A stretch of 64,000 nt of DNA from contig CAJUPB010000012.1 in assembly GCA_910588155.1 (NCBI GenBank), positions 2,046 to 66,045 on the forward strand. The letters run 5' to 3'. Origin of the DNA: an uncultured Christensenellaceae bacterium. GTDB lineage: Bacteria > Bacillota > Clostridia > Christensenellales > Pumilibacteraceae. This document shows positions 4,546 to 57,255 of this stretch, piece after piece. The position numbers and the translations under genes are program-made. The notes beneath the pieces are model-generated. The model was not told the DNA's origin. It ran no database searches and worked only from the letters and a program-made list of their open reading frames with translations. Within the stretch, counting starts at the first letter, position 1; every line of letters starts with the position of its first letter.

Positions 4546-6093
4546 ATGAGTATTTTGGAAATAAAGGGTTTGTCGCATACTTTCGACAACAAGATGCTGT
4601 TTGAAAAGGCGGACCTGACCGTTATGAACGGCGAACACATCGGAGTGGTCGGGTTAAACGGCGCAGGCAAGTCCACGTTTATAAATATTCTTGCGGGACG
4701 TCTGATACAGGACGACGGTCTCGTGAAGTGGAATTCTTCGTGCAGCAGGGGATATCTCGACCAGCACGCGGATATAGACAGAAGCAAAACGGTTATGGAA
4801 TATCTGACCGATTCTTTTTCGCGTTTGCACGAAATGAACGGCAAATTGGAAAAGCTGTACGAGAAGATGGGAGAAACGACGGACGGCGAGGAATTGGAAC
4901 GTTTGATAGACAAAAGCAATTCTCTGCTGGAAAGGCTTACCGACGAGGGCTTTTTCGATTTGGAAGCGACCGTCAAAAAAGTCGCAAACGGTCTCGGCGT
5001 GGGCGCATACGGCTATGATACTCCGATTTCCGCTTTAAGCGGAGGGCAGAGAGCGAAGCTTATGCTTTCCCGTCTTTTGTTGGAAAAACCCGATTTGATG
5101 TTGCTGGACGAACCTACGAACTTTCTTGACGTTGAACACATCGAATGGCTTATCGATTTTCTGAATTCGTTTAAAGGAACGTTTCTCGTCATATCGCACG
5201 ATACGGAGTTTTTGGACAAGGTGTCGAAGTTTATAGTCGGTATAGAGAACGGCGGAATAAAAAAGTACGGCGGCAACTATACCGCATATCTTGCGCAAAG
5301 AGAGCAGAACGCAAAGCAGTATGAAGAAAGTTATATAAGACAGCAGCGTGAAATAGAAAAAATGGAAGACTATATAAACCGCAACAAGGCGCGCGCGGCG
5401 ACGGCGGGTATGGCGAATGCGAGGAAGAAGCAGTTGGAGAAAATGGAACGGATAAAGAAACCGTCCGTGATTTACGATGCGGTATTCTCGTTCCCGTACG
5501 TAGAGTTGCATACGCGCGATTTGACGGTAACCGATTCTTTGGAGATTGGCTATGATTTTCCGCTGTTGCCGCCGTTGAACATACATCTCAAATCGGACGA
5601 CAAGCTTTGGATTAGAGGTACGAACGGAGTGGGAAAGACCACGCTGGTTAAAACGCTGACGGGCTTTTTGAAACCGCTCGGCGGCAGTTACCGATTTCAC
5701 CCGTTTGTAAAAATAGGATATATAGAGCAGGAACCGAACTTTGCCGACGGCTCCGTAAATGCGGTCACATACGTTTCCGACCGTCTGCCGAAGCTGGACT
5801 CGAAGCAGATACGAAATACGCTTGCGCTTTCCGGGATAAAGAACGACCTTGCCGTAAAGCCGATTAGAGAGCTTTCCGGCGGAGAGCAAGTGCGGGTCAA
5901 ATTGACCGTTTTGACAAACACCCCGACCAATCTTTTGATTTTGGACGAGCCGACGAATCATCTCGACATAAGGGCGAAAGAATCGTTGAAAACGGCTTTG
6001 AAAGAGTATAAAGGCGCGGTTTTGCTGGTCAGTCACGAACGGGAATTTGCCGAAAGCATTTGCGGCGACGTGTTGGACGTGAGAGGGATATAG
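4546..6093 (+). CDS. ABC-F family ATPase (two ABC cassettes, no TM domain; ribosome-associated type)
   Basis: Two Walker A motifs (GLNGAGKST, GTNGVGKTT). Two signature motifs (LSGGQRAKL, LSGGEQVRV). Two Walker B motifs (LLLDEPTN, LILDEPTN). A charged linker (QYEESYIRQQREIEKMEDYINRNKARA) separates the cassettes. Confidence 0.88.
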   Translation: MSILEIKGLSHTFDNKMLFEKADLTVMNGEHIGVVGLNGAGKSTFINILAGRLIQDDGLVKWNSSCSRGYLDQHADIDRSKTVMEYLTDSFSRLHEMNGKLEKLYEKMGETTDGEELERLIDKSNSLLERLTDEGFFDLEATVKKVANGLGVGAYGYDTPISALSGGQRAKLMLSRLLLEKPDLMLLDEPTNFLDVEHIEWLIDFLNSFKGTFLVISHDTEFLDKVSKFIVGIENGGIKKYGGNYTAYLAQREQNAKQYEESYIRQQREIEKMEDYINRNKARAATAGMANARKKQLEKMERIKKPSVIYDAVFSFPYVELHTRDLTVTDSLEIGYDFPLLPPLNIHLKSDDKLWIRGTNGVGKTTLVKTLTGFLKPLGGSYRFHPFVKIGYIEQEPNFADGSVNAVTYVSDRLPKLDSKQIRNTLALSGIKNDLAVKPIRELSGGEQVRVKLTVLTNTPTNLLILDEPTNHLDIRAKESLKTALKEYKGAVLLVSHEREFAESICGDVLDVRGI

Positions 6094-41240: not shown

Positions 41241-44200
41241 TTATTCTTGCACGGGACTTTTGATTGTGCCGTAGGAATGTGAGTCGAGATATTCGCGCAA
41301 GGTTTCTATGGGGCGTTCGTCGTATATCGGCGTGTCGCCGTTAAAGCCCGTCGCAACTCTGAACGTTTCGATTTCTTCGCCTATATCGGCAAGCACGGCT
41401 TCGAACTTCATAGACACCACGCTTGCCATAGACGTGGAGAAGCCGAGTTCGTTTATGAAAGTCTTTTCGCCCGTGCCGATATTCGTTTTGCGCGTGCCGA
41501 TGAACAGCTCGGCTTCCGAAAGGCTGGTGTTTCCGGCAAGGCTGCCCAAATCGATTTTTGTGTAATGGCGATTGTCTTTGAAGTAGTAGTGTTTATAGAA
41601 GTCTTTGAACTCTCCGGGAGTCGTGTTTCCGCCCTTTGAAATTTGGTCGGTTATCGTACTCTTCAAAATGCCCGACATCGGCGCGACATAGAAGACGTAT
41701 TCCATTATGTTGTTAATGCCGTCTGTTCCCGACATTTCGCTCATCAAATCGCCTACGGCAACTTTGACGAAGTTGTATTTTCCGTTCTTGTCGAGCTTGT
41801 TGAAATACATATAGCCGTCGAGGTAGTAAATTTGAGACGCCGATTTTTCCAAGACTTCCACGATAATCGATTTTTTCGGGGTGGAAAGCGAAACGATGAC
41901 AAGCGGCTTATTGACTATACTGCCGTCGGGTTGCGGTGTGGGAATCAGCTTTACTCTTGCGTCGATGGGTACGTTAATGTCGATGTTGACGATTCCGATG
42001 TGCACATTCAGATTGCCCGAAATGTGGAAGTCGGAGAGGTTTGCCGTATTTAAAAGCGCGGTCGTGAGATTGGAAACATTCGACAAATCGTTCAGGCAGT
42101 TGCCTTCGAGATATTGTTTGTAATATGTTTCGTACTTCATTCCGTAAGTGCTTTCGAACCAGGCGGAGAAGTAGTCGTCCAAAGAAGTCGTTTGTCCGTT
42201 GTCCGACACGGTATTTTTCATTGTGTGGAAATCGGCATAGGTCCAATATTCTCCGTTGTATTCCACGTATGTGAGGTCTTTGATTTTGTCGACAAAACCG
42301 TCCGAAATTTTCAGATATTCGTCCGTTCTCATTCTGACGTATTCGCCGTCGTTGCTCTGCGTGTATTTATAGCGCGCACCCCAGAAATCCCACGAGCGTT
42401 TGAAACGCTGTGATTTGATTATATCGCTCTCGCCGAACGATACGTCGTGACGCACGTATTCTTCTTTGTAGTTCGGCAAACTTACGCCGTTCAGTTTGCC
42501 TGCGAGAATGTTGTCGATAAGCTCTTGGCGTTTATACGTGCCGCCCGCGCTTGTGGCGTAGTTGTAATCGTGATATACGGGACGCTCTATTTTAATTTCG
42601 TTTGCGTCGGGGCAATCGAGGGACAGGCGGAACGACGTGACGGAGTTTGACGTGTGAAGATTGCTCATACTCCAATCGGTCAGCACGGGATTGCCGTCGT
42701 TCGTTCTCGTAAGAGTAAAGTCGGTTTCGCCGACGCGAACCGTCAAGGTCGAAGTTTCGCCGTTTTCGGCGGTAACGCTTTTCAAACTTACTCTCGGCAA
42801 ATTGCGAATGAGATTGACTATTTGTCCCACGCCGGGGGAGGATATGTCTCCCGTTCCGAACAGTTTGGATATTCTGCCGATGACGTCGCTTGCCGTGCTT
42901 ACGAATTCGGTATAGTCGTAATCGTAATCATACATAAATTCCTGCGCTTCGTGACAGACTTGCGTCGCAATGTCCAAAAGTCCGTTTATAAGCTCGCTCA
43001 TTTCGGCAAAGCCTTCTATGTCGAAGTCTTTCAAAAATTCGCCGGATACTATTTCTCTGTCCTTCGGAATCACATAGTCGAGAATCGTGCCGTCTTTGAT
43101 TCCGAGGGCGTCCTTGACGTTTCCGAGAAGGTTAAGCACTTCCGCAACGGTAAGTTTAAACTTGACGCCGTTGTAAGTTAGATATATTTCCTGCAACGGG
43201 TCGCCGTCGGTAATCATAATTTCAAACGTGTGTCTGGGGGCGACACCGTCGAAATTTGCGTCCACGCCTGTTGCCGCCGTTTCGTATACGTTAAATCCGA
43301 GCCGCAGGTTGGGTATGCCGCTTTTGGGGATAATTTCCGCATAGCCGTCGACTTTATGCGTTTTGTCTTTATACCACACGCGAATGTCGTGGAATGTCAC
43401 GCGATATGCCTGCTGTTTGAACGTTCCCAAAAGCGCGTCGAAATAGCTTATCAATTCGCTTGCCGGCGTGTAGTCGAGATTGAGAGAAGACAGAACGTAT
43501 TCCTCGGCTTCGGTTTGGTCGAATACGCGTGACAAATCGAGAGAGGCATTTATTGCTACCGTGCCGATTGTTTCGTCGTAAAGCTCGGTATGCAGCGTGA
43601 TTCCGCCGAGCGTTCCGTTTTTCAAGTTCACGCACAAATCGAGAGCGACGTCGCCGAACTTCAAGCCGATTTCGAGAGATTCCGAATTTGTGATTTTGAC
43701 AAAGTCAATCATATCGAGAACGGAATTTGCGTTCAAATCGGGCGTTGCTTCGTCGATTTTGTTTTGCAGGTCGGCGATGAGGCGGGGGAGGAACTTCGGC
43801 AGCATAGGCTGTACCGATTGCATAAACGCGTCGAAATCGTCTTTATTGCCGCAGACGCGCAATTCGTCGTAAACAAAGTGGTAATCTTTGCCGCTGCGCG
43901 AGAATACGACGGGGAGATTTTCTCCGCCGACTTGCGGCAGAGAGAGATTGATTTGGAAGTCGGCGCCGCTCTGTTTCAAAACGACGGCAATCTGACCCGT
44001 TACCGCAATGCTCTCGCCGTCGAGAGCTATGACAGCGTTGAAATCCGCGACGACTCCGCGCTTGTTTACAAGTTCCTTAATCGGTTCGACAAACCGCAAG
44101 AGGTCGTTTGCGTCGATATATTCGATGTCGGCGGCGGCGATATTCTTTTCGGTTTCGCTTGCCGAAAGGACTGCGTCAAGTTTGATTTTTGCGCCGTTTG

Positions 44201-46280
44201 CCTCGATTTCGTCTATGTTCAGAGAGGACAGGTATTTGCCGTCGTGACAAAGCGTTATACCGTAGTTTTTACCGTCGATTTCTACTGCCGCGCGCAGGTT
44301 GCCCTCGACGGCTTGGAATTCGGTTATGTGCGCAAACAGAGCTTTCAAATCGAGATTTGCAAGCACGTGCGCAATATTCGGAATTTCGATGTTTTTATTT
44401 AACCCGACGTCGGGAAGAACAATACCCGCCGAGGACAGCAGTTCGGCGATTTCGGATTTCAAGTCGTCGAAATCGGCGACGTCGGCTTTGATTCCGACGT
44501 TTCCGCATTTCAAGTATACAGTCTCGCCGTCAAAGCAGACGTCGAAAGCAATGCCGAGCTTTTCCAAAGATATTTTGCCGCACAGCGTCAAATCGCGGTT
44601 CAGCAAAATATTCGCCGTTATTTTGTCGGTGAAGTTTGCGCTTTCGACGTTTGCCGTCAAAGCTATGTCGAAGCTCTTTGCGTTTGCCGTGTTCAATGCG
44701 GGCTCGACGAAATCCAGCACGGGTTCGAGGGATACGAATTCGGACGTATCGGGGAAGTCGAAACCGTCTCTCGGAGTTATGTCGATTATCACGGGAATGC
44801 CGTTTATTTTCACCGTGGCATTTATGGAGTTCAGCGAAACATTTTCGCCGTCGTTTATGACGAGGTCAACGTCCAATTCGATTTTGCTTGCAAGCTTGAC
44901 AAGCTCGCAGTCCGATTTCAAAAGGTCGGACAACTTGAATTTCAAGGTTATGGTGACCAATCCGTTCTCTTTCACGAGGTCGGAATCGGCAAACAGCGAA
45001 CCGATTATGTCGTCGGTCAGCATAGCTTCGAAATCGGCATTCAAAAGCGCGTTCAAATCTATGCCGCCGATATTGATTTTGTCGAAATCGAAACCGAAGT
45101 CGAGTTCGAGAAGTCGGGAGAGGGCGGAAATCGGAAGATAGCCTTTGACTATTCCCGCGCCCACATACGCCCGTTCGCCGTCATAACCGAAGAACAGTGC
45201 GTCGTCGACAAGCGCACTTATATTCATCGAAGAAATATCGACGCTTGCTTTGATGTTTCGTCTGCTTCCGAAAACAAGCGCATCGGCTTCGATTGTCAGT
45301 TTTTCGCCGTTCAAATAGGGCGCAAACGCTTCGGCGAGATAGGTGGAAGCATTCTTTTCCGCGGGGATATCGGGGATATCCGTGTTGTCGCCGTCTTCGG
45401 GAAGAAACGGCTCGAAGATTTCGCTTTCGGGCAAGGGCATATCCTCGTTTATATACGAGAACGTATCGAGCATAGTGGATACGCAGGACATACTGCCGAG
45501 GACGGGAATGGCAATGTCGTACGTGTCCACGCACAGAACGGTTTTTGCGTACCAATTCGAGTCAATCGTCATTGTCAGCGTCATAGAATGTATGACGGGG
45601 TCCTGCGCCGCGCTTGCCAAAGTGCGGATTTCGTTTTTGAAATATTTGCCGCCGATTTCGGGAATGAGTTCGAACTCATAGACATATTCGTCGTTGCCGA
45701 AGGATATGAGTTTTGCCGAGGATACGGATTCTTCGGTAACGGAATATTTGGTTATTTCGCGGGGTACGGCTCCGTACTTCGAAAAGAACGTGTCGGTACT
45801 CATCGGATAAATCGAGCTGCTCCACGTGACGTTTTCTCCGCGCACTTTTTCGGAAGGGCGGAAAAGCACGGTATCGTTAGGCGTAATATATTTTTGTTCC
45901 GCCACCGACACAAGCGACGACGTGGACACAGTTTCCGCAAACACCGTTCCTTGTTTGACTTTGCGCGAGTTGCGGACGTTTTGGGTATACTTTGTGAAAC
46001 CGAGGTCGGCTTTGCACGTACCGACGGAATCTGCCTGAAAATAGCTCGAATTGAAAATTACGAAATTCGCAAAACGGAAGTTCTCCATAGGCGAATAGTC
46101 GAGCGGCGTGCCGCTTTCGGGGGGCTGTTCCATTTCGCAAATGCTGTTTACGATTTCCGCGGGGGTGAAAACGGAGGACGCGCCGCCGCCCGTAATAGAA
46201 GAGAGCACGTAAAAAGCCACTGCCAACACGGGCAGCAACATAAAAAACAATTTAAATCTGCTGACGTATTTTTCTTTCAC
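41241..46280 (-). CDS. Giant hypothetical protein, 1,679 aa, single N-terminal TM anchor, no recognised domain
   Basis: GTG start with GAGG 6 nt upstream. The TM helix is FKLFFMLLPVLAVAFYVLSSI. The remainder is acidic and N/D/S/T-rich with a beta-like alternating pattern. The gene is monocistronic, lying between a terminator and a divergent promoter region. Confidence 0.8.
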   Translation of the reverse strand: MKEKYVSRFKLFFMLLPVLAVAFYVLSSITGGGASSVFTPAEIVNSICEMEQPPESGTPLDYSPMENFRFANFVIFNSSYFQADSVGTCKADLGFTKYTQNVRNSRKVKQGTVFAETVSTSSLVSVAEQKYITPNDTVLFRPSEKVRGENVTWSSSIYPMSTDTFFSKYGAVPREITKYSVTEESVSSAKLISFGNDEYVYEFELIPEIGGKYFKNEIRTLASAAQDPVIHSMTLTMTIDSNWYAKTVLCVDTYDIAIPVLGSMSCVSTMLDTFSYINEDMPLPESEIFEPFLPEDGDNTDIPDIPAEKNASTYLAEAFAPYLNGEKLTIEADALVFGSRRNIKASVDISSMNISALVDDALFFGYDGERAYVGAGIVKGYLPISALSRLLELDFGFDFDKINIGGIDLNALLNADFEAMLTDDIIGSLFADSDLVKENGLVTITLKFKLSDLLKSDCELVKLASKIELDVDLVINDGENVSLNSINATVKINGIPVIIDITPRDGFDFPDTSEFVSLEPVLDFVEPALNTANAKSFDIALTANVESANFTDKITANILLNRDLTLCGKISLEKLGIAFDVCFDGETVYLKCGNVGIKADVADFDDLKSEIAELLSSAGIVLPDVGLNKNIEIPNIAHVLANLDLKALFAHITEFQAVEGNLRAAVEIDGKNYGITLCHDGKYLSSLNIDEIEANGAKIKLDAVLSASETEKNIAAADIEYIDANDLLRFVEPIKELVNKRGVVADFNAVIALDGESIAVTGQIAVVLKQSGADFQINLSLPQVGGENLPVVFSRSGKDYHFVYDELRVCGNKDDFDAFMQSVQPMLPKFLPRLIADLQNKIDEATPDLNANSVLDMIDFVKITNSESLEIGLKFGDVALDLCVNLKNGTLGGITLHTELYDETIGTVAINASLDLSRVFDQTEAEEYVLSSLNLDYTPASELISYFDALLGTFKQQAYRVTFHDIRVWYKDKTHKVDGYAEIIPKSGIPNLRLGFNVYETAATGVDANFDGVAPRHTFEIMITDGDPLQEIYLTYNGVKFKLTVAEVLNLLGNVKDALGIKDGTILDYVIPKDREIVSGEFLKDFDIEGFAEMSELINGLLDIATQVCHEAQEFMYDYDYDYTEFVSTASDVIGRISKLFGTGDISSPGVGQIVNLIRNLPRVSLKSVTAENGETSTLTVRVGETDFTLTRTNDGNPVLTDWSMSNLHTSNSVTSFRLSLDCPDANEIKIERPVYHDYNYATSAGGTYKRQELIDNILAGKLNGVSLPNYKEEYVRHDVSFGESDIIKSQRFKRSWDFWGARYKYTQSNDGEYVRMRTDEYLKISDGFVDKIKDLTYVEYNGEYWTYADFHTMKNTVSDNGQTTSLDDYFSAWFESTYGMKYETYYKQYLEGNCLNDLSNVSNLTTALLNTANLSDFHISGNLNVHIGIVNIDINVPIDARVKLIPTPQPDGSIVNKPLVIVSLSTPKKSIIVEVLEKSASQIYYLDGYMYFNKLDKNGKYNFVKVAVGDLMSEMSGTDGINNIMEYVFYVAPMSGILKSTITDQISKGGNTTPGEFKDFYKHYYFKDNRHYTKIDLGSLAGNTSLSEAELFIGTRKTNIGTGEKTFINELGFSTSMASVVSMKFEAVLADIGEEIETFRVATGFNGDTPIYDERPIETLREYLDSHSYGTIKSPVQE

Positions 46281-46538
46281 GGCAAGCCTCGAAAACCTCT
46301 TCCGAAAACGGATAACACCGATTAAAGACTGTTATCTTATTTAATATATATATAATATAACACAATAATGTCGAAAAACGCAAGAGTTCTCGCCTTATTT
46401 TCGAAAAATTTCTCCGATTTTTTTGCTTATAATCCCGCGAAAGAAGTAAAAATGTCCTTTGCGAGAGCAAGCGGTTTCGCATAATTGCCGAAAAAATGAG
46501 ATATACTGCTTATAAACGTTTAAAACGAGGATACTGAT

Positions 46539-47870
46539 TTGGCGGAAACTTTCGAATTACCCGACGCCGAGCGGTTTGTTTTGCCGCTTGACTTTGAAAA
46601 CGACAAAACAAAACTCGTCCGCGCGTTAAACGGTTATGCGCCGCGTTTCGGCGTGAAAATCGACGGAGTGACAAGCGAAAGGAATCTGCCGTTCGACCCC
46701 GAACCGCGAGTCATCGAAACAGAAGAGTTCGAGTTTTTGAAGCGAGGACTCATTCAGCGTGCGGACGCATTGAACGCATTTTTAAACGACGTATACGGCG
46801 ATTGCAAAATTCTCAAAGACGGCGTCATCCCCGCCGATTTCGTGCTGTCTTCGCAAGGCTTTCTTCCGCGTTGCATAGGAATCAAACCGCGCCGAGGTAT
46901 TTACGCGCACATTGCGGGAATAGACCTTGTCAAAAGCAAGAAAGGCGAGTGGTACGTTTTGGAGGACAACTTGCGAGTACCGTCGGGCGTGTCCTATCCG
47001 CTTGCCGCGCGTCTGGCGCTCAAAGACTGCGGTATGTGCGAATTCGACGCGGTAGACTCTTTGAATTACGGACGGCTTTTGAAGGACGCCTTCGATTTTG
47101 TTTCCTGCGGCGGCATCGACTGCGTGCTGACTCCCGGGAGAGGCAATTGTGCATTTTTCGAACACGGCTTTCTCGCGGAGATGACAAACAGTGCGCTTGC
47201 CTGCGGAAGCGACTTGTTTGCGGACGGCGACGTGCTTTACTTCAAAGGCGCGGACGGCGTGCAACGCGTGGGCGCGCTGTATACCCGCGTGGACGGAGTA
47301 TATGCCGACCCGCTTGCTTTCCGCTCCGTGTCCGCGGTCGGGACGCCGAATCTTTTCTCGGCATACGCCGCCGGCAACGTTGCCGTGCTGAATGCTTTCG
47401 GTTGCGGCGCGGCAGACGATAAGGGCGTGTATTGCTATGTGCCGCAAATGATTAAATACTATCTCGGACAAGACGCCGTTTTGTCGCAGCCGCAGACGTT
47501 TTTGCCGACACGGGGTAGCGAAATGCGCTATATACAAGACAATTTCGACAGTCTGGTCATAAAGGACGTCGCGGAATCGGGCGGCTTCGGAATACGTTTC
47601 GGCGCGGCGCTGGACGAGGAAGGAAAAGCCGCGCTCAAAGCCGAAATAACGGCAAATCCGAGGCGGTTTATCGCGCAGGAAGTCGTGGACATAGAAGAGC
47701 TGCCCGCGTGCGGCGGTTCGGCAAAAGCCGATTTGCGGGCGTTTGTCGTTACGTCCGACAGAACGAGAGTGTGGGAAAGCGGTCTGACTCGGTTTGCTGC
47801 AAAAGATTCGCTTATGGTAAATTCTTCGCAGGGTGGAGGTTTTAAGGATACGTGGGTATCGTTTCGTTGA
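46539..47870 (+). CDS. Circularly permuted type-2 ATP-grasp protein (DUF404/DUF407 family)
   Basis: Family-typical blocks are LPFDPEPRVIETEEFEFLKRGLIQRADALNAFLNDVYGD, ILKDGVIPADFV, and WYVLEDNLRVPSGVSY. TTG start. Confidence 0.75.
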   Translation: MAETFELPDAERFVLPLDFENDKTKLVRALNGYAPRFGVKIDGVTSERNLPFDPEPRVIETEEFEFLKRGLIQRADALNAFLNDVYGDCKILKDGVIPADFVLSSQGFLPRCIGIKPRRGIYAHIAGIDLVKSKKGEWYVLEDNLRVPSGVSYPLAARLALKDCGMCEFDAVDSLNYGRLLKDAFDFVSCGGIDCVLTPGRGNCAFFEHGFLAEMTNSALACGSDLFADGDVLYFKGADGVQRVGALYTRVDGVYADPLAFRSVSAVGTPNLFSAYAAGNVAVLNAFGCGAADDKGVYCYVPQMIKYYLGQDAVLSQPQTFLPTRGSEMRYIQDNFDSLVIKDVAESGGFGIRFGAALDEEGKAALKAEITANPRRFIAQEVVDIEELPACGGSAKADLRAFVVTSDRTRVWESGLTRFAAKDSLMVNSSQGGGFKDTWVSFR

Positions 47871-48478
47871 GTGATTTGGACAAGCTCTTTTGGGCGGGCA
47901 GGTATTGCGAACGCGCAAGAGGAATATATGAGCGCTATGTCGCCTTGCCGTCCGACGGCGGCGTGCGGCTCGACTTTCTGGCACGTCTCGGCATAGATTG
48001 CAACGATTCGTCGCCGCATATTGCGCTGTTTGGCGGCGACGGTGCAATCGTGAACGCTTTGCGTATGTGGCGGGAGAATGTTTTGTGCCTGCGGTATGTG
48101 CTGTCTTGCCGAGCGGTGATTCAGGCGGAAAAAGCCGTAACGGAGTGCGAAGAGGGGAATTTCGACAATCTCGTTTTGCGTTCTTACGCATTTTTCGGAA
48201 TGACGGAAGACTTGACGTTCGACAATACCGCCCGATGCTGCGTGACGGCGGGGCGAATGTGCGAAAAACTCGATTTGTTGTCGCGGTTTTGCGAAGACAC
48301 GTTTGCCGCGCAAGACGCTTTGAACCGTTTGAGTGCGGCTTGCGCCGACAGCCCCGCCGTGCAAAATATGATTTCTCAAAGCGCGCTGCAACTGATTGAC
48401 GGCGATATACGCTCGAATAATGTAGTCACGGTCAAGAGCAGAACGCCGTATTTGGAGAGCAATAATGAGTTTTCTTGA
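47852..48478 (+). CDS. Alpha-E domain protein (DUF403), short form
   Basis: LFWAGRYCERARG matches the alpha-E N-terminal signature (YWMGRY.ERAE). It overlaps the ATP-grasp gene by 19 nt. At 208 aa it is shorter than I expect for this family (about 300 aa, from memory). Confidence 0.65.
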   Translation: MGIVSLSDLDKLFWAGRYCERARGIYERYVALPSDGGVRLDFLARLGIDCNDSSPHIALFGGDGAIVNALRMWRENVLCLRYVLSCRAVIQAEKAVTECEEGNFDNLVLRSYAFFGMTEDLTFDNTARCCVTAGRMCEKLDLLSRFCEDTFAAQDALNRLSAACADSPAVQNMISQSALQLIDGDIRSNNVVTVKSRTPYLESNNEFS

Positions 48479-49244
48479 TTTCGATTACGAACTGAAACTG
48501 AATTTCTCTTCGCCCGTCACCGACCACCGATTTATATTGCGCTGTCTGCCTTTGAGGGATTTGTCGCAATTGCCCGACGCCGTGGAAGCGGAAGTGTTTC
48601 CGCACAGCTCGCTTTGGAGAAGCTCCGCGCCGAACGAGGGCGGCACTCTTATGGGCAGCGTGGATTTCGAACACACGGAGTTTACCGCGAGAACTCGGGG
48701 CAGGGTTTTCGAACGCGAGGGCTACGATACGGGCGCGCCGCATTTCGCATATTTGCATTTTACGTCCGTGACCGAACCCAATGAATTTTTGAGAGATGTT
48801 GCGAAAAAGTTCGACAGGCATTCGAAGAACTACAATCTTGCGCTTAAAGCAATGGAAGAGGTCAACTCGATGTTGACGTATACGGAAAATGCCACCGACT
48901 CGGATACGACGGCAGATGAGGCTTTGCGGATGAAAAAGGGCGTGTGTCAGGATTATGCGCACATATACTGTTCGCTTATGCGGCTTTTGGGAGTGCCCAC
49001 GCGGTATGTGGCGGGACTCTTGAAAGGCGTCGGAGAAACTCACGCTTGGAACGAGTGCTATTTAGACGGGCATTGGCGGGCATTCGACTGCACGAACGAC
49101 AAGCCCGCGACGAACGGTTACGTCAAACTCGCCGTCGGCGTCGATGCGCGTCAGTGTGCGCTTAACAGGGGAGTGTTTACGCCGTTGCTTGGAAAGGTGG
49201 CGGAGCAGTCGCAGCGGGTGCGCGGACGGGTGGAAACTTCTTGA
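48465..49244 (+). CDS. Transglutaminase-like cysteine protease-fold protein (Bact_transglu_N plus transglut core)
   Basis: The Cys-His-Asp triad context is KKGVCQDYAH, GETHAWNECY, and RAFDCTN. It overlaps the alpha-E gene by 14 nt. Confidence 0.8.
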   Translation: MSFLDFDYELKLNFSSPVTDHRFILRCLPLRDLSQLPDAVEAEVFPHSSLWRSSAPNEGGTLMGSVDFEHTEFTARTRGRVFEREGYDTGAPHFAYLHFTSVTEPNEFLRDVAKKFDRHSKNYNLALKAMEEVNSMLTYTENATDSDTTADEALRMKKGVCQDYAHIYCSLMRLLGVPTRYVAGLLKGVGETHAWNECYLDGHWRAFDCTNDKPATNGYVKLAVGVDARQCALNRGVFTPLLGKVAEQSQRVRGRVETS

Positions 49245-49276
49245 CAAACTCCGCCGTTTGTTATATAATTCTGACT

Positions 49277-50809
49277 ATGGCGAACGCATTGTACAGAAAA
49301 TACCGCCCGCAAGTCTTTGACGACGTTTACGGGCAGGACCATATAGTAAACACGCTGAAAAATCAGATAAAGCACGACAGAGTTTCGCACGCCTATCTCT
49401 TTACGGGCAGCCGCGGAACGGGCAAAACCACTTGTGCCAAGATATTTGCGCGGGCGATAAACTGCAAAAGTCCCGTAAACGGTTCTCCGTGCGGAAAATG
49501 CGAATGTTGCAAGGCTCTTGCCGAAAGCAATAACATAGATATTATGGAAATCGACGCCGCATCCAACAACGGCGTGGACGATGCACGCGAAATTCGGGAA
49601 AGAGTCAAGTACACTCCGGTATACGGAAGATATAAAGTCTATATAATAGACGAGGTACATATGTTGAGCGCGTCGGCTTTCAACGCGCTTTTAAAGACGC
49701 TCGAAGAGCCGCCCGCGCACGCCGTCTTCATTCTTGCGACGACGGAAGTGCATAAGCTGCCCGCGACCATTCTTTCGCGTTGTATGCGTTTCGATTTCCG
49801 TCTCATAGGTGTGGAAGAGCTGTACGGGCAACTCAAAAAGATTTTCGACAAAGAGGGCAAGAAATACGAGGACGCCGCATTGAAGTTCATTGCGCGAGCG
49901 GGCGAGGGTTCCTCCCGAGATATGCTGTCCGTTGCGGACATCTGTTTCAATTACAGCGACAAAAAACTCACGCTTGCCGATGTTATGACGGTTACGGGCG
50001 GCGCCGACAGAAGTGTGATTGCGCGCCTTTTCAAGGCGGTAAAAAGCGGCGATTTGGCGGAGATTTTCAAAAGTATCGACGAAATGGCAAGCGGCGGCAA
50101 AAGTATGAGCTTGATTGCGAAAGAGCTGTTGCGGTATGTGCGCGACCTGCTTGTCGTCAAGACGGGAAATACGCGTATGATAGTGGATACCGAAGAAAAC
50201 ATAGCACAGATGAATGAAGAAGCGCAGGACTGCGACCCGCAGTATCTTTCCGCGCTTATCGGTATTTTTGCGGAAGCGGACGCGACACTTCGATATTCCG
50301 TTTCGCCTAGGATTGCGTTGGAAACGGTGTGTTTGAAAGCCGCGAGTTTGGCGGCTGCCGACTATTCCGCTCTGGAACGCAGAATTGCCCGTTTGGAATG
50401 CGGCACACTCGTGCCGCATTCCGCGCAGGAAACGCACGTCGCGGCAAAGGCGGCAGAGGCGGAAAAGCCTGCGAAGGGGCAGGAAGAAGCCGAAACGGAC
50501 GCATTCACGGTTTGGGGCAAGTTGGTTACGTTTGCGAGAACGGGCGGTTCTATGCGGTTGTACACGCTGTTCGGAGCGCATTCCGACGTGGAAATAAAAG
50601 ACGGCAAGCTGATTGTCTGGTGCAACGACGACAACTATCTTCAATTCTCCGAGCCGGAAGCGGAAGAGCTTTTGCGGCGCGGCTTGAAAGCGGTCGGAAG
50701 CGGGCTTGTTCCCGTCATAGACAAGAGAAAGAGAAGCGATTCGGACGGGCTTATCGATAAACTCAAAAGTATGATGGGCGGCGTGGAATTGGAAATAAAG
50801 CGAAAATAA
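49277..50809 (+). CDS. dnaX: DNA polymerase III subunit gamma/tau
   Basis: ALYRKYRPQVFDDVYGQ, Walker A GSRGTGKTT, zinc module CGKCECC, and IIDEVHMLS. Confidence 0.95.
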   Translation: MANALYRKYRPQVFDDVYGQDHIVNTLKNQIKHDRVSHAYLFTGSRGTGKTTCAKIFARAINCKSPVNGSPCGKCECCKALAESNNIDIMEIDAASNNGVDDAREIRERVKYTPVYGRYKVYIIDEVHMLSASAFNALLKTLEEPPAHAVFILATTEVHKLPATILSRCMRFDFRLIGVEELYGQLKKIFDKEGKKYEDAALKFIARAGEGSSRDMLSVADICFNYSDKKLTLADVMTVTGGADRSVIARLFKAVKSGDLAEIFKSIDEMASGGKSMSLIAKELLRYVRDLLVVKTGNTRMIVDTEENIAQMNEEAQDCDPQYLSALIGIFAEADATLRYSVSPRIALETVCLKAASLAAADYSALERRIARLECGTLVPHSAQETHVAAKAAEAEKPAKGQEEAETDAFTVWGKLVTFARTGGSMRLYTLFGAHSDVEIKDGKLIVWCNDDNYLQFSEPEAEELLRRGLKAVGSGLVPVIDKRKRSDSDGLIDKLKSMMGGVELEIKRK

Positions 50810-51954: not shown

Positions 51955-51983
51955 TTGACATTGCGCATAAAAGATGTTATAAT
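51955..51983 (+). promoter_or_regulatory. Consensus sigma-A promoter driving the tRNA gene
   Basis: TTGACA, a 17-nt spacer, then TATAAT with a TG extension (TGTTATAAT), about 33 nt upstream of the tRNA 5' end. Confidence 0.7.
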
Positions 51984-52016: not shown

Positions 52017-52093
52017 CGCGGGGTGTAGCAATAGGTTAGCTTTTCGGGCTCATAACCCGAAGGTTGGAGGTTCGAACCCTTCCCCCGCAACCA
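52017..52093 (+). tRNA. Initiator tRNA-fMet (anticodon CAT), CCA encoded
   Basis: The gene folds by hand into a 77-nt cloverleaf. The acceptor CGCGGGG/CCCCGCA has the C1:A72 mismatch. An A11:U24 pair is present. Three consecutive G:C pairs close the anticodon stem (TCGGG-CTCATAA-CCCGA). The T-loop is TTCGAAC. Confidence 0.93.
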
Positions 52094-52142: not shown

Positions 52143-52766
52143 TTATATTTCGGAAATTATTTTAAGTCGTTTCAAGACGGGCAACAGCGCGCCCACGATA
52201 ACCAGATTCAGAGTTATTACAATCGGTTGCGGCCAACGTGTTGCAAGCATTGCAAAAAACGGAACTTCTCCCATAGTATTCAGCGACAGCCCCAAAGTCG
52301 TTATGCCCAAAGTGCAAACCAGCATAGAAACAACGGTGCCTATGACAATTTTCAAAAACAGATTTTTTATCGGAATATACTTGACCGCAAGACCGATAAA
52401 AAGCGGAAATAACGTATTCGATATCACGAGCAGGGGAAGTATTCCGCCCGTTGTGGGCAATAAGAATGTGCCCAATACGTCGGAAAGAAATCCGACTGCC
52501 ATACCGCCCAACGGTCCGAGTATGACTGCGGACAGAATCCAGGCAATATAGATGAAACTCAATTTCAGGTTGAACAGCATCAGCGCGCCGCCCCAAATTT
52601 GACCCACGAGTTTCAGTATCAGCGCAAGCGCGGTCAGCGCGGCTGTGTAAGTCAATCCTCTTGTGTACGATAGTGCGGGTTTCTTTTTGAGGCTATTGCA
52701 ATCATTCGGAGTTGCAATTTCCTGTTGAGAAACCCTCGGTTTTTTTACCTCGGTGTTACTTCTCAA
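52143..52766 (-). CDS. ECF-transporter substrate-capture (S) component, FolT-like
   Basis: Polytopic membrane protein. ILGPLGGMAVGFLSDVLGTFLLP and LATRWPQPIV resemble folate-family S components. TTG start with AAGGAG upstream. Confidence 0.55.
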   Translation of the reverse strand: MRSNTEVKKPRVSQQEIATPNDCNSLKKKPALSYTRGLTYTAALTALALILKLVGQIWGGALMLFNLKLSFIYIAWILSAVILGPLGGMAVGFLSDVLGTFLLPTTGGILPLLVISNTLFPLFIGLAVKYIPIKNLFLKIVIGTVVSMLVCTLGITTLGLSLNTMGEVPFFAMLATRWPQPIVITLNLVIVGALLPVLKRLKIISEI

Positions 52767-52828: not shown

Positions 52829-54358
52829 CTATGCCCGACGTGTTTTTGCAACGGTTTTTGCCTTCTTTTTCGAAACTTTTTCTTTTTTTCTTACGAACAT
52901 ACTCAAATCGAAAGTTGCGAATATAAGGTTTAAACCAATCATAAATACGAGCGACACGCCGCCCGCCACGGCTATTCTGAAAAATGCGGGCAGCGCAAAG
53001 CAGAGAGCATACAGCCAGCGATTCAACAGTATGGCGGGGAATATCAGACATACGGACTTGACAAGCGCGGGAATAAACGACAGCTTTATCTGCGTTTTAC
53101 GCTTTATGTCTATTATGTCGAGGACGGACGACAGCGTGAGGTTGACGCCCATAGCTATCGACAGAATGTTGACGTTGAAATTGTTTCGGAACAGAAAGAG
53201 TATGGCAAACAAAACTGCGCTTCCTATAAGATAGTTTATCAGACTTTTGATTTCGAGGTCGAGGGAGTTCATCATAGAAGAGGTTATGCTTTCCACGGCT
53301 ATCGGAATCAAAAGCCACGCAGAGAAAGAGAGAAAGCGCCCCGATTCCGCGCTGTTATATACGAATAGGCCTATCGCTTCGCCAAGTTCGAAGAATGTCG
53401 GTACAAACAATGCGGACAGCGTTATGGAAAAAGAAATTGCGTTTTCAATCTGGCGTTTGACGGACTCTTTGTCGCCGTTGGCTTTTGCGGTGGAAAGAGT
53501 GGGTATCATAACGAACGCCAGTGAACCGATGACGGTTATCGGAATATACAAAAGCGGCATAGCCATTCCTATGGATGCGCCGTATGCGCTCATAGCCTGC
53601 GCTATGCTCATACCGCTCGATATCAGAAGTTGCGGAACGATAAGCGCAATCAGCGAATTCAGGATACTTCCGGAAGTTTTGACGGCGGTAATCGGAAGGG
53701 CGGATTTAATCAGTGCCGCAAATTGTCCTTTCGGCGGCGACAGTTTGCCTTTAAGCGCAAAGTATCCGATTATACAGCTCAAACAACTCAACGCACAGCC
53801 CAAAAGCATAGCGAATGCCGTGCTTTTCATTTTGTCGAAGCCGAGAGAGAACGCTATGATGCATACGCCTATGCGTATGACCTGTTCCACAACCTCGACT
53901 ACGGAAACGAGAGTGTATCGTTCGTTTCCCCACAGATTGCCGCGCAGGGCGGCATACACCGCGGAAAAGCAAGAGCCCGGCAGCATTATGAGCAAAAGCG
54001 TCATAGATTCTTTTGCCGCAAACAGACCGCCGAGAATGTCTTTCAAAAGAAAGCAAACCAGACAGACCGCCACCGATACCGAAACGCCGGTTATCATAGC
54101 GGCGGAAGCAAGCGATTGCGCCGATTTGAATTTCTTTTCCGCGACGTATTTTGCCGTCAACTTGCTTACGACGAGAGGTATGCCGCTCGTCACCAAACCC
54201 AAAAGCACGTAAAATACGGAAAGCGAAACTTGATATACTCCGAGAGATACCGAGCCGAGCTGTCGGGAGAGATATATTTTGAATACAAAGCCTATCGTTC
54301 TTTCCAAAACGGTAAATGCGGAGAGGGTAAAGACCGCCTTTATGATACCTTTTTTCAT
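52829..54358 (-). CDS. MOP-superfamily flippase (SpoVB/MurJ-like polysaccharide biosynthesis protein)
   Basis: About 14 TM segments. The N-terminus FTVLERTIGFVFKIYLSRQLGSVSLGVYQVSLSVF is typical of SpoVB-type proteins. Confidence 0.75.
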   Translation of the reverse strand: MKKGIIKAVFTLSAFTVLERTIGFVFKIYLSRQLGSVSLGVYQVSLSVFYVLLGLVTSGIPLVVSKLTAKYVAEKKFKSAQSLASAAMITGVSVSVAVCLVCFLLKDILGGLFAAKESMTLLLIMLPGSCFSAVYAALRGNLWGNERYTLVSVVEVVEQVIRIGVCIIAFSLGFDKMKSTAFAMLLGCALSCLSCIIGYFALKGKLSPPKGQFAALIKSALPITAVKTSGSILNSLIALIVPQLLISSGMSIAQAMSAYGASIGMAMPLLYIPITVIGSLAFVMIPTLSTAKANGDKESVKRQIENAISFSITLSALFVPTFFELGEAIGLFVYNSAESGRFLSFSAWLLIPIAVESITSSMMNSLDLEIKSLINYLIGSAVLFAILFLFRNNFNVNILSIAMGVNLTLSSVLDIIDIKRKTQIKLSFIPALVKSVCLIFPAILLNRWLYALCFALPAFFRIAVAGGVSLVFMIGLNLIFATFDLSMFVRKKEKVSKKKAKTVAKTRRA

Positions 54359-54549: not shown

Positions 54550-57255
54550 ATGATGAAAGTCGATAAAAAAAGAGCGACGTATATGCCGCTTATAACGCTG
54601 TTAATCGCGGTACTCGTATTGCCCGCTTTATCGGGCTGTTTTTCGGGTTGCTTCGGTTTGTCGCTGACTTCCATATCGTTCAAACAAGAACAAATAAATT
54701 TGAATATCGGCGACGTGTATACCGTCACCGCATCTGCGCTGGATTTCGAGCCGGCTCTTGCTTCGAACAAGGATTTTACGTTGGAAAGCCAAGATTTTGA
54801 CGTCGTGGAAGTCGTCGGAAGACAGATAACCGCAATCGGAGCGGGCAAAGCAACCGTAACGGCGGTTGCCGACGCAAACCCGAGCATTCGCGCGCAAATA
54901 ATCGTAAACGTCGGATATCCTACACCCACGGTTCTGACACTTAATACAATAGGGGACACTGCGCAGTATGTCGGCGAAGTTACCTCCGTGAAATTCGAAG
55001 TTGCGGCAGACGTCGAAATAGACCCCGAAAGCCGTTTTATATGGACGATTGACGGCGAGCGCGACCCCGAAAACGAGTCGGCGGTTTACGAGTTTACTCC
55101 CGCGAATCGGGCGGGCGAGCATTTGATAGAAGCCGAGCTCGGGGACTGCAAAGCGCAAAGCTGCATTAAAGTGTTCACGAAGAGGATAGAAAATGCCGAA
55201 GCGAGCGCAACGGGCGCATTCGAACAGGACAACGATTATACGGCGGTAAATATTTCCGTGACGTATTCGGCTGTCGACGGCGACCCCGAACCTTTTATGG
55301 ATTATTATGTAAACGGCAAACTTTGTCACAGCGGTTCCGACAATTTCGATTTCACGCCGGAAACCGCGGGAATATATACCGTTACTGTAAAACTCAACGA
55401 CGAAACCGTGCTCATAAACGGCGAAAGCGAGCTTGTGATTACCGCAAAGGGCAGCGTTACGCCGACGGGAGTCAAGGTTTCGTATAACAACGTATATCCG
55501 AATATTATCGTGACTTGGAATTGTCCGCATAACGACAATATGAATTACGGACTCAAAATAGAAAAAATCGTCGGGGGCAACGTTTCGCAGGTTTCGGAAA
55601 ATATCACTTCGACGAACGTTTCGGCGAAAAAGTATTTCGACGGTACCAGCGTCAATCTGGGCGAGCTTATCGACATAACTTCTTCGGCATACAGGATAAG
55701 CGTTCGTTCTCTCGGCGACAACGGCATATACTCTCAATCGTCGTACAGCGACGGCGTTATCGTGAATAAGATAGATTCGAGCGCGGTATCGGCATTGAAC
55801 AATAAAGTTCTCGGCTCTTCCATCGACCATTACATCGTGGGCGACGACGAATTCAACGAGCTTTACGCATATTATATGGCATTCAGAAAAACCGCATCAA
55901 AAGTTCAGTTTACGGTGTATATGGCATATACACCCGCACATAAGGCTTACAGCGGTGCAGGAGAGTCCTCTCTTTTGGGCAATGCATTCAATTACGGCGC
56001 GACCACCGGTTACTACGACATAGAACCGCCCAAGGTAAACGGAAGAACAGTTTATTCGGTTCGCGCGGGGGACGTTATGACGGTGACGGTCGGTTGCGAC
56101 AATACCGTGGTCCCGAGCATTGCGGGCGATTATTCGCAGACCGTAAGACAATACGACGCTTTGGAACCTCACACCGCGACGGCGCTCGGCAAGAGTCTGA
56201 CGAGAGACTCGACCCACGAGTTTGTCACGGATACTTATACCAAAGCGGAAGCGGTAACCACTTCGGAAGAACTGTTTCGTACGGTGGAATACGGCGTGCG
56301 TCCCGTTCCTACGAGAGGTTCGGCGGCGGAGAGATTGTATTCTTTTGCGAAAAGACTGCTTATCGAAATAAATTCCGACGATATGACCGACGCCGAAAAG
56401 GTGCACAGCATATACGATTGGATTATGTGGAACGTTCAGTACGACCATTCGGCAGTAAACGTAAGCAAAGAAACGGACAGCGCGAAATACAATGCCTATT
56501 GGTTGGAAGGCGTGTTGACGACGACAAACGCATATGCCGTTTGCGACGGTATGAGCAAAGCAATGTCGCTGTTATGCAATATGGAGGGAATACCCGCATA
56601 CCGTGTCACGGGCACGGCGGGGCCGTCCGTTGCGGGATTGACGAGAGCGGAAGCATTGCTGGTCAAACAGGAACAATGGGGCGGTCACGCCTGGGTTAAG
56701 GTCAAAGTGGACGGAGATTGGTACGTCTGCGACCCGACCTGGGGAGATTCTACGGCGGAAATAGGGTCGGGATTTTCCAAAGCGGTGTACGAAATGGCTT
56801 GGCACGACCACTTGCTGGTTTCCGACTCCGACATAGCATACACGCACGAATACGACCATACTACGAATAATCCCGTAACCGCTGCGGAAAGTTACAATAT
56901 TTACGATAAAATGGAATTGGTTTATGCGGATTCGAGCGGAACGCAAAAGAGCGTCGACACCTATATCGACGCGGGCGGCAGCGCGATGGACAGAGAACTC
57001 CGCGAAATCGCCGACTATATTTCATACAGTGCAGACATTGCTAAAAAGAGCATTACCATTATGGGAAGTACGAAATCGAGATTGTATTTCGGCGTCGAAT
57101 TGGTGGCTTCGGACAGATATATGAGCGCTTTCCGTACGACGATGAAATCGCTGACCAATCCGTTGAAAATGCGCCTTTACGAAAACGGATACCGTTCCGT
57201 AGACATATTGATGTTCGATTCTGCGGACAGCATAATGGTCACGGTCAGATTATAA
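54550..57255 (+). CDS. Large lipoprotein with Big_2-like Ig domains and a C-terminal transglutaminase-like core
   Basis: The signal peptide has lipobox LSGC. A Big_2-like module is present (NIGDVYTVTASAL...ITAIGAGKATVTAVA). The TGase triad context is AYAVCDGMSKAM, WGGHAWVKV, and YVCDPTWGD. Confidence 0.8.
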   Translation: MMKVDKKRATYMPLITLLIAVLVLPALSGCFSGCFGLSLTSISFKQEQINLNIGDVYTVTASALDFEPALASNKDFTLESQDFDVVEVVGRQITAIGAGKATVTAVADANPSIRAQIIVNVGYPTPTVLTLNTIGDTAQYVGEVTSVKFEVAADVEIDPESRFIWTIDGERDPENESAVYEFTPANRAGEHLIEAELGDCKAQSCIKVFTKRIENAEASATGAFEQDNDYTAVNISVTYSAVDGDPEPFMDYYVNGKLCHSGSDNFDFTPETAGIYTVTVKLNDETVLINGESELVITAKGSVTPTGVKVSYNNVYPNIIVTWNCPHNDNMNYGLKIEKIVGGNVSQVSENITSTNVSAKKYFDGTSVNLGELIDITSSAYRISVRSLGDNGIYSQSSYSDGVIVNKIDSSAVSALNNKVLGSSIDHYIVGDDEFNELYAYYMAFRKTASKVQFTVYMAYTPAHKAYSGAGESSLLGNAFNYGATTGYYDIEPPKVNGRTVYSVRAGDVMTVTVGCDNTVVPSIAGDYSQTVRQYDALEPHTATALGKSLTRDSTHEFVTDTYTKAEAVTTSEELFRTVEYGVRPVPTRGSAAERLYSFAKRLLIEINSDDMTDAEKVHSIYDWIMWNVQYDHSAVNVSKETDSAKYNAYWLEGVLTTTNAYAVCDGMSKAMSLLCNMEGIPAYRVTGTAGPSVAGLTRAEALLVKQEQWGGHAWVKVKVDGDWYVCDPTWGDSTAEIGSGFSKAVYEMAWHDHLLVSDSDIAYTHEYDHTTNNPVTAAESYNIYDKMELVYADSSGTQKSVDTYIDAGGSAMDRELREIADYISYSADIAKKSITIMGSTKSRLYFGVELVASDRYMSAFRTTMKSLTNPLKMRLYENGYRSVDILMFDSADSIMVTVRL

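Follow-up and report, generated by a model that had tools for sequence, protein, structure and literature searches.

The subject of this study is a compact cluster of three genes, here called the triad, in a stretch of 64,000 nucleotides (nt) from an uncultured Clostridia bacterium of the mouse gut (contig CAJUPB010000012.1 of assembly GCA_910588155.1, positions 2,046 to 66,045; the window). On the forward strand it encodes, in this order, a circularly permuted (CP) type 2 ATP-grasp ligase (46539-47870, 443 residues, TTG start), a short, all-alpha alpha-E protein (47852-48478, 208 residues, GTG start) and a transglutaminase-like Cys-His-Asp protein with a putative, diverged Bact_transglu_N-type N-terminal domain (48465-49244, 259 residues, ATG start). 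The genes were taken from the list of open reading frames and assigned with Pfam, and AlphaFold2 (AF2) models were built for the ligase and for alpha-E. The ligase stop and the alpha-E start overlap by 19 nt (47852-47870), and the alpha-E stop and the transglutaminase start by 14 nt (48465-48478), exactly where an earlier note, made from the sequence alone, had located them. Each gene is preceded by a Shine-Dalgarno sequence: GAGGA for the ligase (46527-46531, 7 nt 5' of TTG 46539), GGAGG for alpha-E (47835-47839, 12 nt 5' of 47852 and within the ligase codons Gly432-Gly433-Gly434) and GGAGAG for the transglutaminase-like gene (48454-48459, 5 nt 5' of ATG 48465). Since these ribosome-binding sites are present and the N-termini are conserved among relatives, all three start codons are supported; at the position aligned with the ligase start, the relative L007 (compared loci are numbered L001 to L092) has an ATG. 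The arrangement is thereby confirmed and far beyond chance, and we regard the triad as a chromosomal three-gene operon.

The ligase was matched by the Pfam profiles CP_ATPgrasp_2 (PF14403, E=1.1e-112) and CP_ATPgrasp_1 (E=9.7e-98), which bears out its earlier assignment to type 2. In a sequence search, residues 37-440 were aligned with PDB entry 3n6x (E=7e-91). When the protein was compared with seven deep homologues from Clostridia, Deinococcus, Ralstonia and Sinorhizobium, all of the roughly 100 positions that are invariant across these groups were retained, among them LEDNLR at 141-146, a DDK motif, K295, K342, the glycine loop GG.G at 348-351 and NSSQGGGFKDTW at 428-439. The AF2 model (predicted local distance difference test, pLDDT, 81.6) was then searched with Foldseek. 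The best match was again 3n6x, with a template-modelling score (TM) of 0.81, followed by glutathione synthetases, Cp1B and GspS/TryS. The characterised fold neighbours are all small-molecule amide ligases (TM 0.5-0.6, E 1e-14 to 1e-6), namely glutathione and homoglutathione synthetases, the E-64 pathway ligase Cp1B (PMC12568646) and glutathionylspermidine/trypanothione synthetases. About 8000 homologues were scored at E<=1e-20, the best of them about 436-447 residues long and from Oscillospiraceae, Ruminococcus, Lachnospiraceae and similar groups. Gene 1 encodes a glutathione-synthetase-like, circularly permuted ATP-grasp carboxylate-amine ligase with all family-invariant residues intact.

The second protein was recognised by the Pfam profile Alpha-E (PF04168) with E=1.9e-7 and 31.5 bits, above the gathering score of 20.8. 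The match covers only positions 78-189 of the 294 in the profile. A 224-residue alpha-E from Chakrabartyella is matched over positions 7-172 with 53 bits, and the long alpha-E of Ralstonia over the entire profile, 1-294, with 335 bits. The assignment holds with this partial coverage, and the ER motif G16-R17-Y18-x-E20-R21 is kept. In addition to these residues, W14, N76, R81, G134, E138 and R145 are retained, and the motifs in common with the long forms are the N-terminal W-GRY-ER, N..LR and G...E(R/K)LD..R. The second 'ER', which is E138-R139 in nearly all short and long alpha-E proteins, is E-K in all members of the 208-residue subtype, with the lysine at residue 139.

The alpha-E protein had been called shorter than expected for its family. 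It is indeed short beside the forms of 310-316 residues in Deinococcus, Ralstonia and Sinorhizobium, which run about 100-110 residues further in the alignment, so that what it lacks is the C-terminal 100 or so residues of the long form. The short form itself, however, is normal in Clostridia, Negativicutes and Coriobacteriia. When 1.84 billion representative proteins were searched with a profile, about 55 clusters (at 50% identity) of short alpha-E proteins with 220-238 residues were returned, only two clusters of the subtype with 208-209 residues and no long form at E<=1e-3. The protein of the window therefore belongs to a rarer and more divergent 208-residue subtype; it is 21-22% identical to other Clostridial short forms, for which the ligases are 52-54% identical. 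The length of 208 residues is kept in relatives at 72% and at about 50% identity, and the AF2 model built from 55 short homologues is confident (pLDDT 93.8, predicted template-modelling score 0.90, 11 helices). Because of this conserved length, the many clusters of 220-238 residues and the confident fold prediction, the short alpha-E appears to be under selection. A frameshifted or truncated gene was considered and ruled out, since the locus leaves no space for a lost C-terminus and the length is conserved. Neither a sequence search nor a fold search of the PDB found a relative of alpha-E (best fold match E=1, TM <=0.34). The short forms of 208-235 residues may define a minimal alpha-E core, for which the C-terminal third of the long form would be dispensable, and they are good structure targets for a fold without a solved relative.

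The third protein contains a Transglut_core domain (PF01841, E=7.1e-22). The N-terminal Bact_transglu_N domain (PF08379), also expected from the earlier reading, was matched only below the threshold (E=0.18, 13 bits against 27), though the match spans the whole profile, with positions 5-79 at residues 8-81. In a 10-sequence alignment spanning Clostridia, Deinococcus, Ralstonia and Sinorhizobium, the protein lines up at its N-terminus with others that bear this domain, and M1, R26, P29 and Q35 are invariant. The motifs GVCQDYAH, THAWNE and FDCTN, quoted earlier for the catalytic context, were located at residues 159, 192 and 207, and C161, H193 and D208 are invariant in the same alignment. Residues 111-233, which form the Transglut_core part, were aligned with PDB entry 3isr (E=2.3e-16). 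Gene 3 encodes an enzyme of transglutaminase fold in which the Cys-His-Asp triad is intact.

The overlap between the ligase and alpha-E genes was compared in loci found when one genome of each GTDB species was scanned. A 38-sequence ligase alignment was used as the query, as a single ligase protein gave no match. At least 591 species-level genomes, mostly of gut and rumen Clostridia, contained a relative, and the best 80 of these loci (L012-L091) were analysed, 78 of them for the start codon. In 64 of the 78, and in L001-L008, the alpha-E frame has a start codon whose distance to the final base of the ligase stop is exactly 18 nt. This start, (A/G)TG, takes its first base from the end of the invariant Thr438 codon and the other two from the beginning of the Trp439 codon, and four more ligase codons precede the stop. 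Of the 76 loci with the 19-nt overlap, 75 have GGAGG embedded in the Gly-Gly-Gly codons of the ligase, where the synonymous third positions are kept as A. The junction of alpha-E and the transglutaminase gene is variable: it is a 14-nt overlap in the window and L001-L003, a gap of 9-10 nt in L004, L005 and L007 and a 4-nt overlap in L008. The 19-nt overlap and the embedded GGAGG form a conserved translational-coupling device. No other evidence here speaks as strongly for joint synthesis of the ligase and alpha-E and for their action as a complex. Coupling signals that are built into invariant codons argue for an obligate complex, and both proteins should be assayed together.

The best 80 loci come mostly from gut and rumen Clostridia, Negativicutes and Coriobacteriia. 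In these loci the order ligase, alpha-E, transglutaminase is near-universal and alpha-E has 220-234 residues, with a median of 225. The window had been described as carrying a compact, overlapping form of the system. The overlaps are real, but the form is ordinary, with the same 19-nt overlap in the 64 loci mentioned above; the compact cluster with a short alpha-E is the norm in these three groups and no peculiarity of this locus. Clusters of a near-identical type were also observed in metagenome-assembled genomes labelled Methanomassiliicoccaceae/Methanomethylophilaceae (archaea), Prevotella, Bacteroidales and Oxalobacter (L012, L015, L040, L053, L066, L090), which could reflect horizontal transfer or binning contamination. 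A role in anti-phage defence was dropped from consideration, as none of the three proteins matched PADLOC-DB at E<=0.01.

Two paralogous genes of about 310 codons follow the triad on the same strand in 64 of the 67 GTDB loci that reach at least 2.1 kb past the transglutaminase gene. In Pfam, both belong to AstE_AspA_cat, the succinylglutamate desuccinylase/aspartoacylase catalytic domain. Examples are found at 8815-10697 in L008, where the paralogues are about 22% identical to each other, and at 7754-9612 in L049. AstE_AspA_cat was matched neither anywhere in the window (best E=1.0) nor in L001-L007, and in Chakrabartyella and Bengtsoniella the triad likewise stands without an adjacent AstE/AspA gene. 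The lineage of the window is a reduced variant, and what is unusual in it is the loss of the AstE/AspA pair, along with the rarer 208-residue alpha-E. No publication that links the triad to AstE/AspA genes in a five-gene arrangement was found in a literature search that did not extend to Iyer 2009.

The reduction could have gone further, into decay, so that with the AstE/AspA genes lost and a shrunken, fast-evolving alpha-E the triad may no longer function. The missing AstE/AspA pair would fit this explanation, and so would the 21-22% identity of alpha-E to other Clostridial short forms despite 52-54% for the ligases, the sub-threshold Bact_transglu_N match, the E-K in place of the second ER motif and the lack of the triad in the relative L092. 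However, the three reading frames are intact, all invariant residues of the ligase and the Cys-His-Asp triad are kept, and Chakrabartyella and Bengtsoniella also have the triad without the adjacent pair. In addition, relatives whose alpha-E is as little as about 50% identical still have the lengths of 443, 208 and 258-262 residues and the signals for coupling, which indicates purifying selection. We therefore regard decay as very unlikely.

The trio was reportedly predicted to be a ligation system by Iyer et al. in 2009, and to our knowledge it has since been among the most widespread bacterial operons without a known substrate. The reading that we favour, and hold to be somewhat probable, is that of an ATP-dependent amide ligase with an obligate alpha-E partner and a cysteine hydrolase, which together make and remove an amide-linked adduct. 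The ligase and alpha-E would act as a complex of about 1:1, in which a carboxylate is activated to the acyl-phosphate and then coupled to an amine. The amine would most likely be an amino acid, plausibly Glu or Asp, and the Cys-His-Asp enzyme would hydrolyse or transfer the resulting amide. What is shown are only the gene identities, the residue conservation and the coupling signals; the chemistry is our inference.

For the acceptor we lean modestly to a small peptide or metabolite over a protein. The AstE/AspA family is named for amidohydrolases of N-acyl-Glu/Asp, and the pair in most Clostridia points to N-acyl or C-terminal Glu/Asp amide chemistry that could be followed in the cultured carriers named below. 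Long-form operons with the same three families are induced by nitrogen limitation via NtrC in Burkholderia and Pseudomonas (PMC5491218, PMC8050072), and in marine metagenomes their abundance correlates with urea-metabolism domains. The small-molecule amide-ligase folds, the AstE/AspA association and the NtrC-dependent induction together lead us to lean to a small acceptor that would carry an acidic amino acid. In a bolder form, which we consider rather unlikely as it stands, the compact Clostridial cluster would ligate an acidic amino acid (Glu/Asp) in a reversible manner, with an obligate ATP-grasp/alpha-E complex as the writer, and with the Cys-His-Asp hydrolase and, in most lineages, two AstE/AspA-type zinc amidohydrolases as erasers. 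If true, this would be a bacterial counterpart of the logic of tubulin tyrosine ligase-like enzymes (TTLL) and cytosolic carboxypeptidases (CCP), or a small-molecule nitrogen-storage cycle. The minimal core, still functional in the absence of the zinc hydrolases and with an alpha-E smaller than any other known, would then be seen in the window lineage.

A protein could also be the acceptor. In the model of Iyer and Aravind, the ATP-grasp enzyme works in the manner of tubulin tyrosine ligase (TTL) and tags a protein with an amino acid or peptide, and the transglutaminase-like peptidase removes the tag. TTL-type enzymes add polyglutamate or tyrosine. By analogy with tubulin deglutamylases, the M14-fold AstE/AspA relatives could serve as erasers of the carboxypeptidase type, and the Cys-His-Asp triad of the transglutaminase-like protein is of the protease type. 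This model is the published prediction (PMC3495828, PMC5666114), and it is favoured by the proteobacterial operons that add a proteasome-like Anbu peptidase, such as that of Ralstonia (L010). However, Anbu was unchanged when it was co-expressed with the proteins of the Pseudomonas operon (PMC5666114), and a tblastn search with the Ralstonia peptidase found no homologue in the 64-kb window (best E=1.5), where the gene 3' of the triad is dnaX. The operon of the window also holds no candidate gene for a tag or a target, and the nearest characterised folds of the ligase are small-molecule ligases. We consider protein tagging possible, though doubtful.

Several points weigh against our favoured reading of a ligase, an obligate partner and a hydrolase. 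Substrate, product and the direction of the transglutaminase-like step are inferred in a family of which no member has a known biochemical activity. The complex of ligase and alpha-E is deduced from their translational coupling only, and the clue given by the AstE/AspA pair may not carry over to a lineage that does not have the pair. The AT-rich intergenic region upstream of the triad (46281-46538), presumed to be the site of its promoter, was inspected for promoters and palindromes and compared with relatives. It has conserved blocks in common with L001 and L007 as well as small palindromes, and its best promoter-like site is a weak 9/12 match at 46341-46369; no convincing promoter or operator of the triad was found there. 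The evidence for expression is weak too. Metatranscriptome contigs cover the triad genes at a low, flat depth, and contaminating DNA is a possible source of these contigs. Because intergenic DNA is covered equally, they prove little on expression or operon structure. In the searchable literature we found only predictions for the trio and no experimental characterisation (Zhang and Aravind 2012, PMC3495828, citing Iyer 2009; Fuchs 2017, PMC5666114), in line with the earlier note. In a 2026 preprint, Rv2411c and Rv2567 were tested only for the synthesis of gamma-aminobutyric acid-trehalose, with a negative result. The triad of the window is an ordinary, reduced member of a widespread and already annotated operon, and this locus does not solve the substrate problem.

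The triad is followed by dnaX, and the operon had been said to abut dnaX without a visible terminator. A sequence scan indeed found no credible terminator between the transglutaminase gene and dnaX, and read-through into dnaX is therefore possible. The abutment needs qualifying: dnaX starts further downstream and has its own promoter. The mechanically called dnaX reading frame on the forward strand, 49241-50809, does not begin at the real start. This is ATG 49277, which opens the conserved N-terminus MANALYRKYRPQ, and the NCBIfam dnaX models match from residue 15 of the mechanical reading frame. The promoter, TTGACA-17-TATAAT at 49241-49269 on the forward strand, is a 12/12 match to sigma-70; it lies outside the triad proper, and its first bases overlap the transglutaminase stop codon. 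Its -10 box ends 7 nt 5' of ATG 49277, and a Shine-Dalgarno sequence is absent, from which a leaderless dnaX mRNA is predicted as probable. Promoter and spacing are both kept in L002, L004, L007 and L092, whatever gene precedes.

The order triad-dnaX-ybaB-recR is common to the window, L002, L004 and L007. Together with the missing terminator and the transcriptome contigs that span the junction of the transglutaminase gene and dnaX, it could suggest that the triad is co-transcribed with dnaX-ybaB-recR and modifies a component of the replisome. The wider comparison speaks against such a tie to replication or repair. The triad is not next to dnaX in any of the 80 GTDB loci, nor in L005, L006 and L008, and the promoter of dnaX is conserved regardless of the upstream gene. 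In L092 (GCA_022793815.1), a gene for an Fpg/Nei DNA glycosylase (5157-5912) occupies the slot of the triad between a giant gene and dnaX. L092 is closely related, with 74% identity in dnaX and an orthologous giant neighbour (more than 1600 residues) that is 58% identical over 1647 residues. Since none of the 80 GTDB loci show the adjacency and the slot of L092 holds an fpg-type gene, the neighbourhood of dnaX is a lineage-specific synteny in a variable slot, and we take dnaX not to be functionally linked to the triad. By these comparisons the replication/repair tie is largely refuted, and we give it next to no weight.

On the other side of the upstream region and divergent from the triad lies the giant reading frame of 1679 codons (41241-46280, minus strand). 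It has an N-terminal hydrophobic helix, is without a Pfam or PADLOC match and is conserved in relatives, with 1672 residues in L001, at least 2099 in L007 and the 58% identity in L092. With Rfam and ARAGORN, no RNA element was detected within the triad or next to it, including the upstream intergenic region. Their sole match in the window was tRNA-Met(CAT) at 52017-52093, just 3' of a perfect promoter, TTGACA-17-TATAAT with a TG extension, at 51955-51983. Further downstream, the minus strand encodes an ECF transporter S-component (52143-52766) and a polysaccharide-synthesis/MatE-type flippase (52829-54358, with a marginal MurJ match). These genes precede a second, unrelated transglutaminase-core protein of 901 residues (54550-57255), which has a Big_2 domain and Transglut_core at residues 606-729 and is syntenic in L092. 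The genes downstream of dnaX in L092 belong to the same families as in the window, an ECF transporter component, a polysaccharide-synthesis/MatE-type flippase and a large Transglut_core protein.

Among proteins of known structure, 3n6x (Mfla_0391 of Methylobacillus flagellatus) has the same permuted ATP-grasp fold as the ligase of the window. It is a structural-genomics entry deposited as a 'putative glutathionylspermidine synthase', a name for which no activity was demonstrated. Eukaryotic glutathione synthetase also has this fold (TM of about 0.6), whereas glutathione synthetases are only 11-15% identical to the ligase and function without an alpha-E partner. For the third gene, the transglutaminase-like putative cysteine protease 3isr from Cytophaga hutchinsonii has the GVC(Q/R)D, HA and D motifs in common with the protein of the window. 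Its N-terminal region is unmatched, and its role as a protease is putative.

Among whole operons, those of Proteobacteria, Actinobacteria and Deinococcus (Ralstonia L010, Sinorhizobium L011, Deinococcus L009) have all three Pfam families of the triad, with order and orientation unchanged. They share with the window the approximately 100 invariant ligase residues, the alpha-E motifs W-GRY-ER and G...E(R/K) and the transglutaminase Cys-His-Asp triad. In contrast to the window, their ligases have 464-600 rather than 443 residues, their alpha-E proteins of 310-316 residues fill the whole Pfam profile, of which the protein of the window corresponds only to about 1-190, and the 19-nt overlap is absent. 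The Ralstonia operon differs further by its Anbu-type peptidase, not found in the window. Another close system is the five-gene cluster, very common in Clostridia and Negativicutes, with L049 (Ruminococcus albus KH2T6), L047 (Anaerovibrio slackiae) and the metagenomic L008 as examples. Its cultured carriers include R. albus KH2T6, A. slackiae WCA-693-APC-5D-A and Succiniclasticum ruminis DSM 9236. Its ligase of about 437-447 residues is 50-54% identical to that of the window. Both have a short alpha-E, the identical 19-nt overlap with the embedded GGAGG and a transglutaminase-like protein of about 256-262 residues. The five-gene cluster has both AstE_AspA_cat genes and an alpha-E of 220-234 residues, whereas the window has the triad without the pair and an alpha-E of 208 residues.

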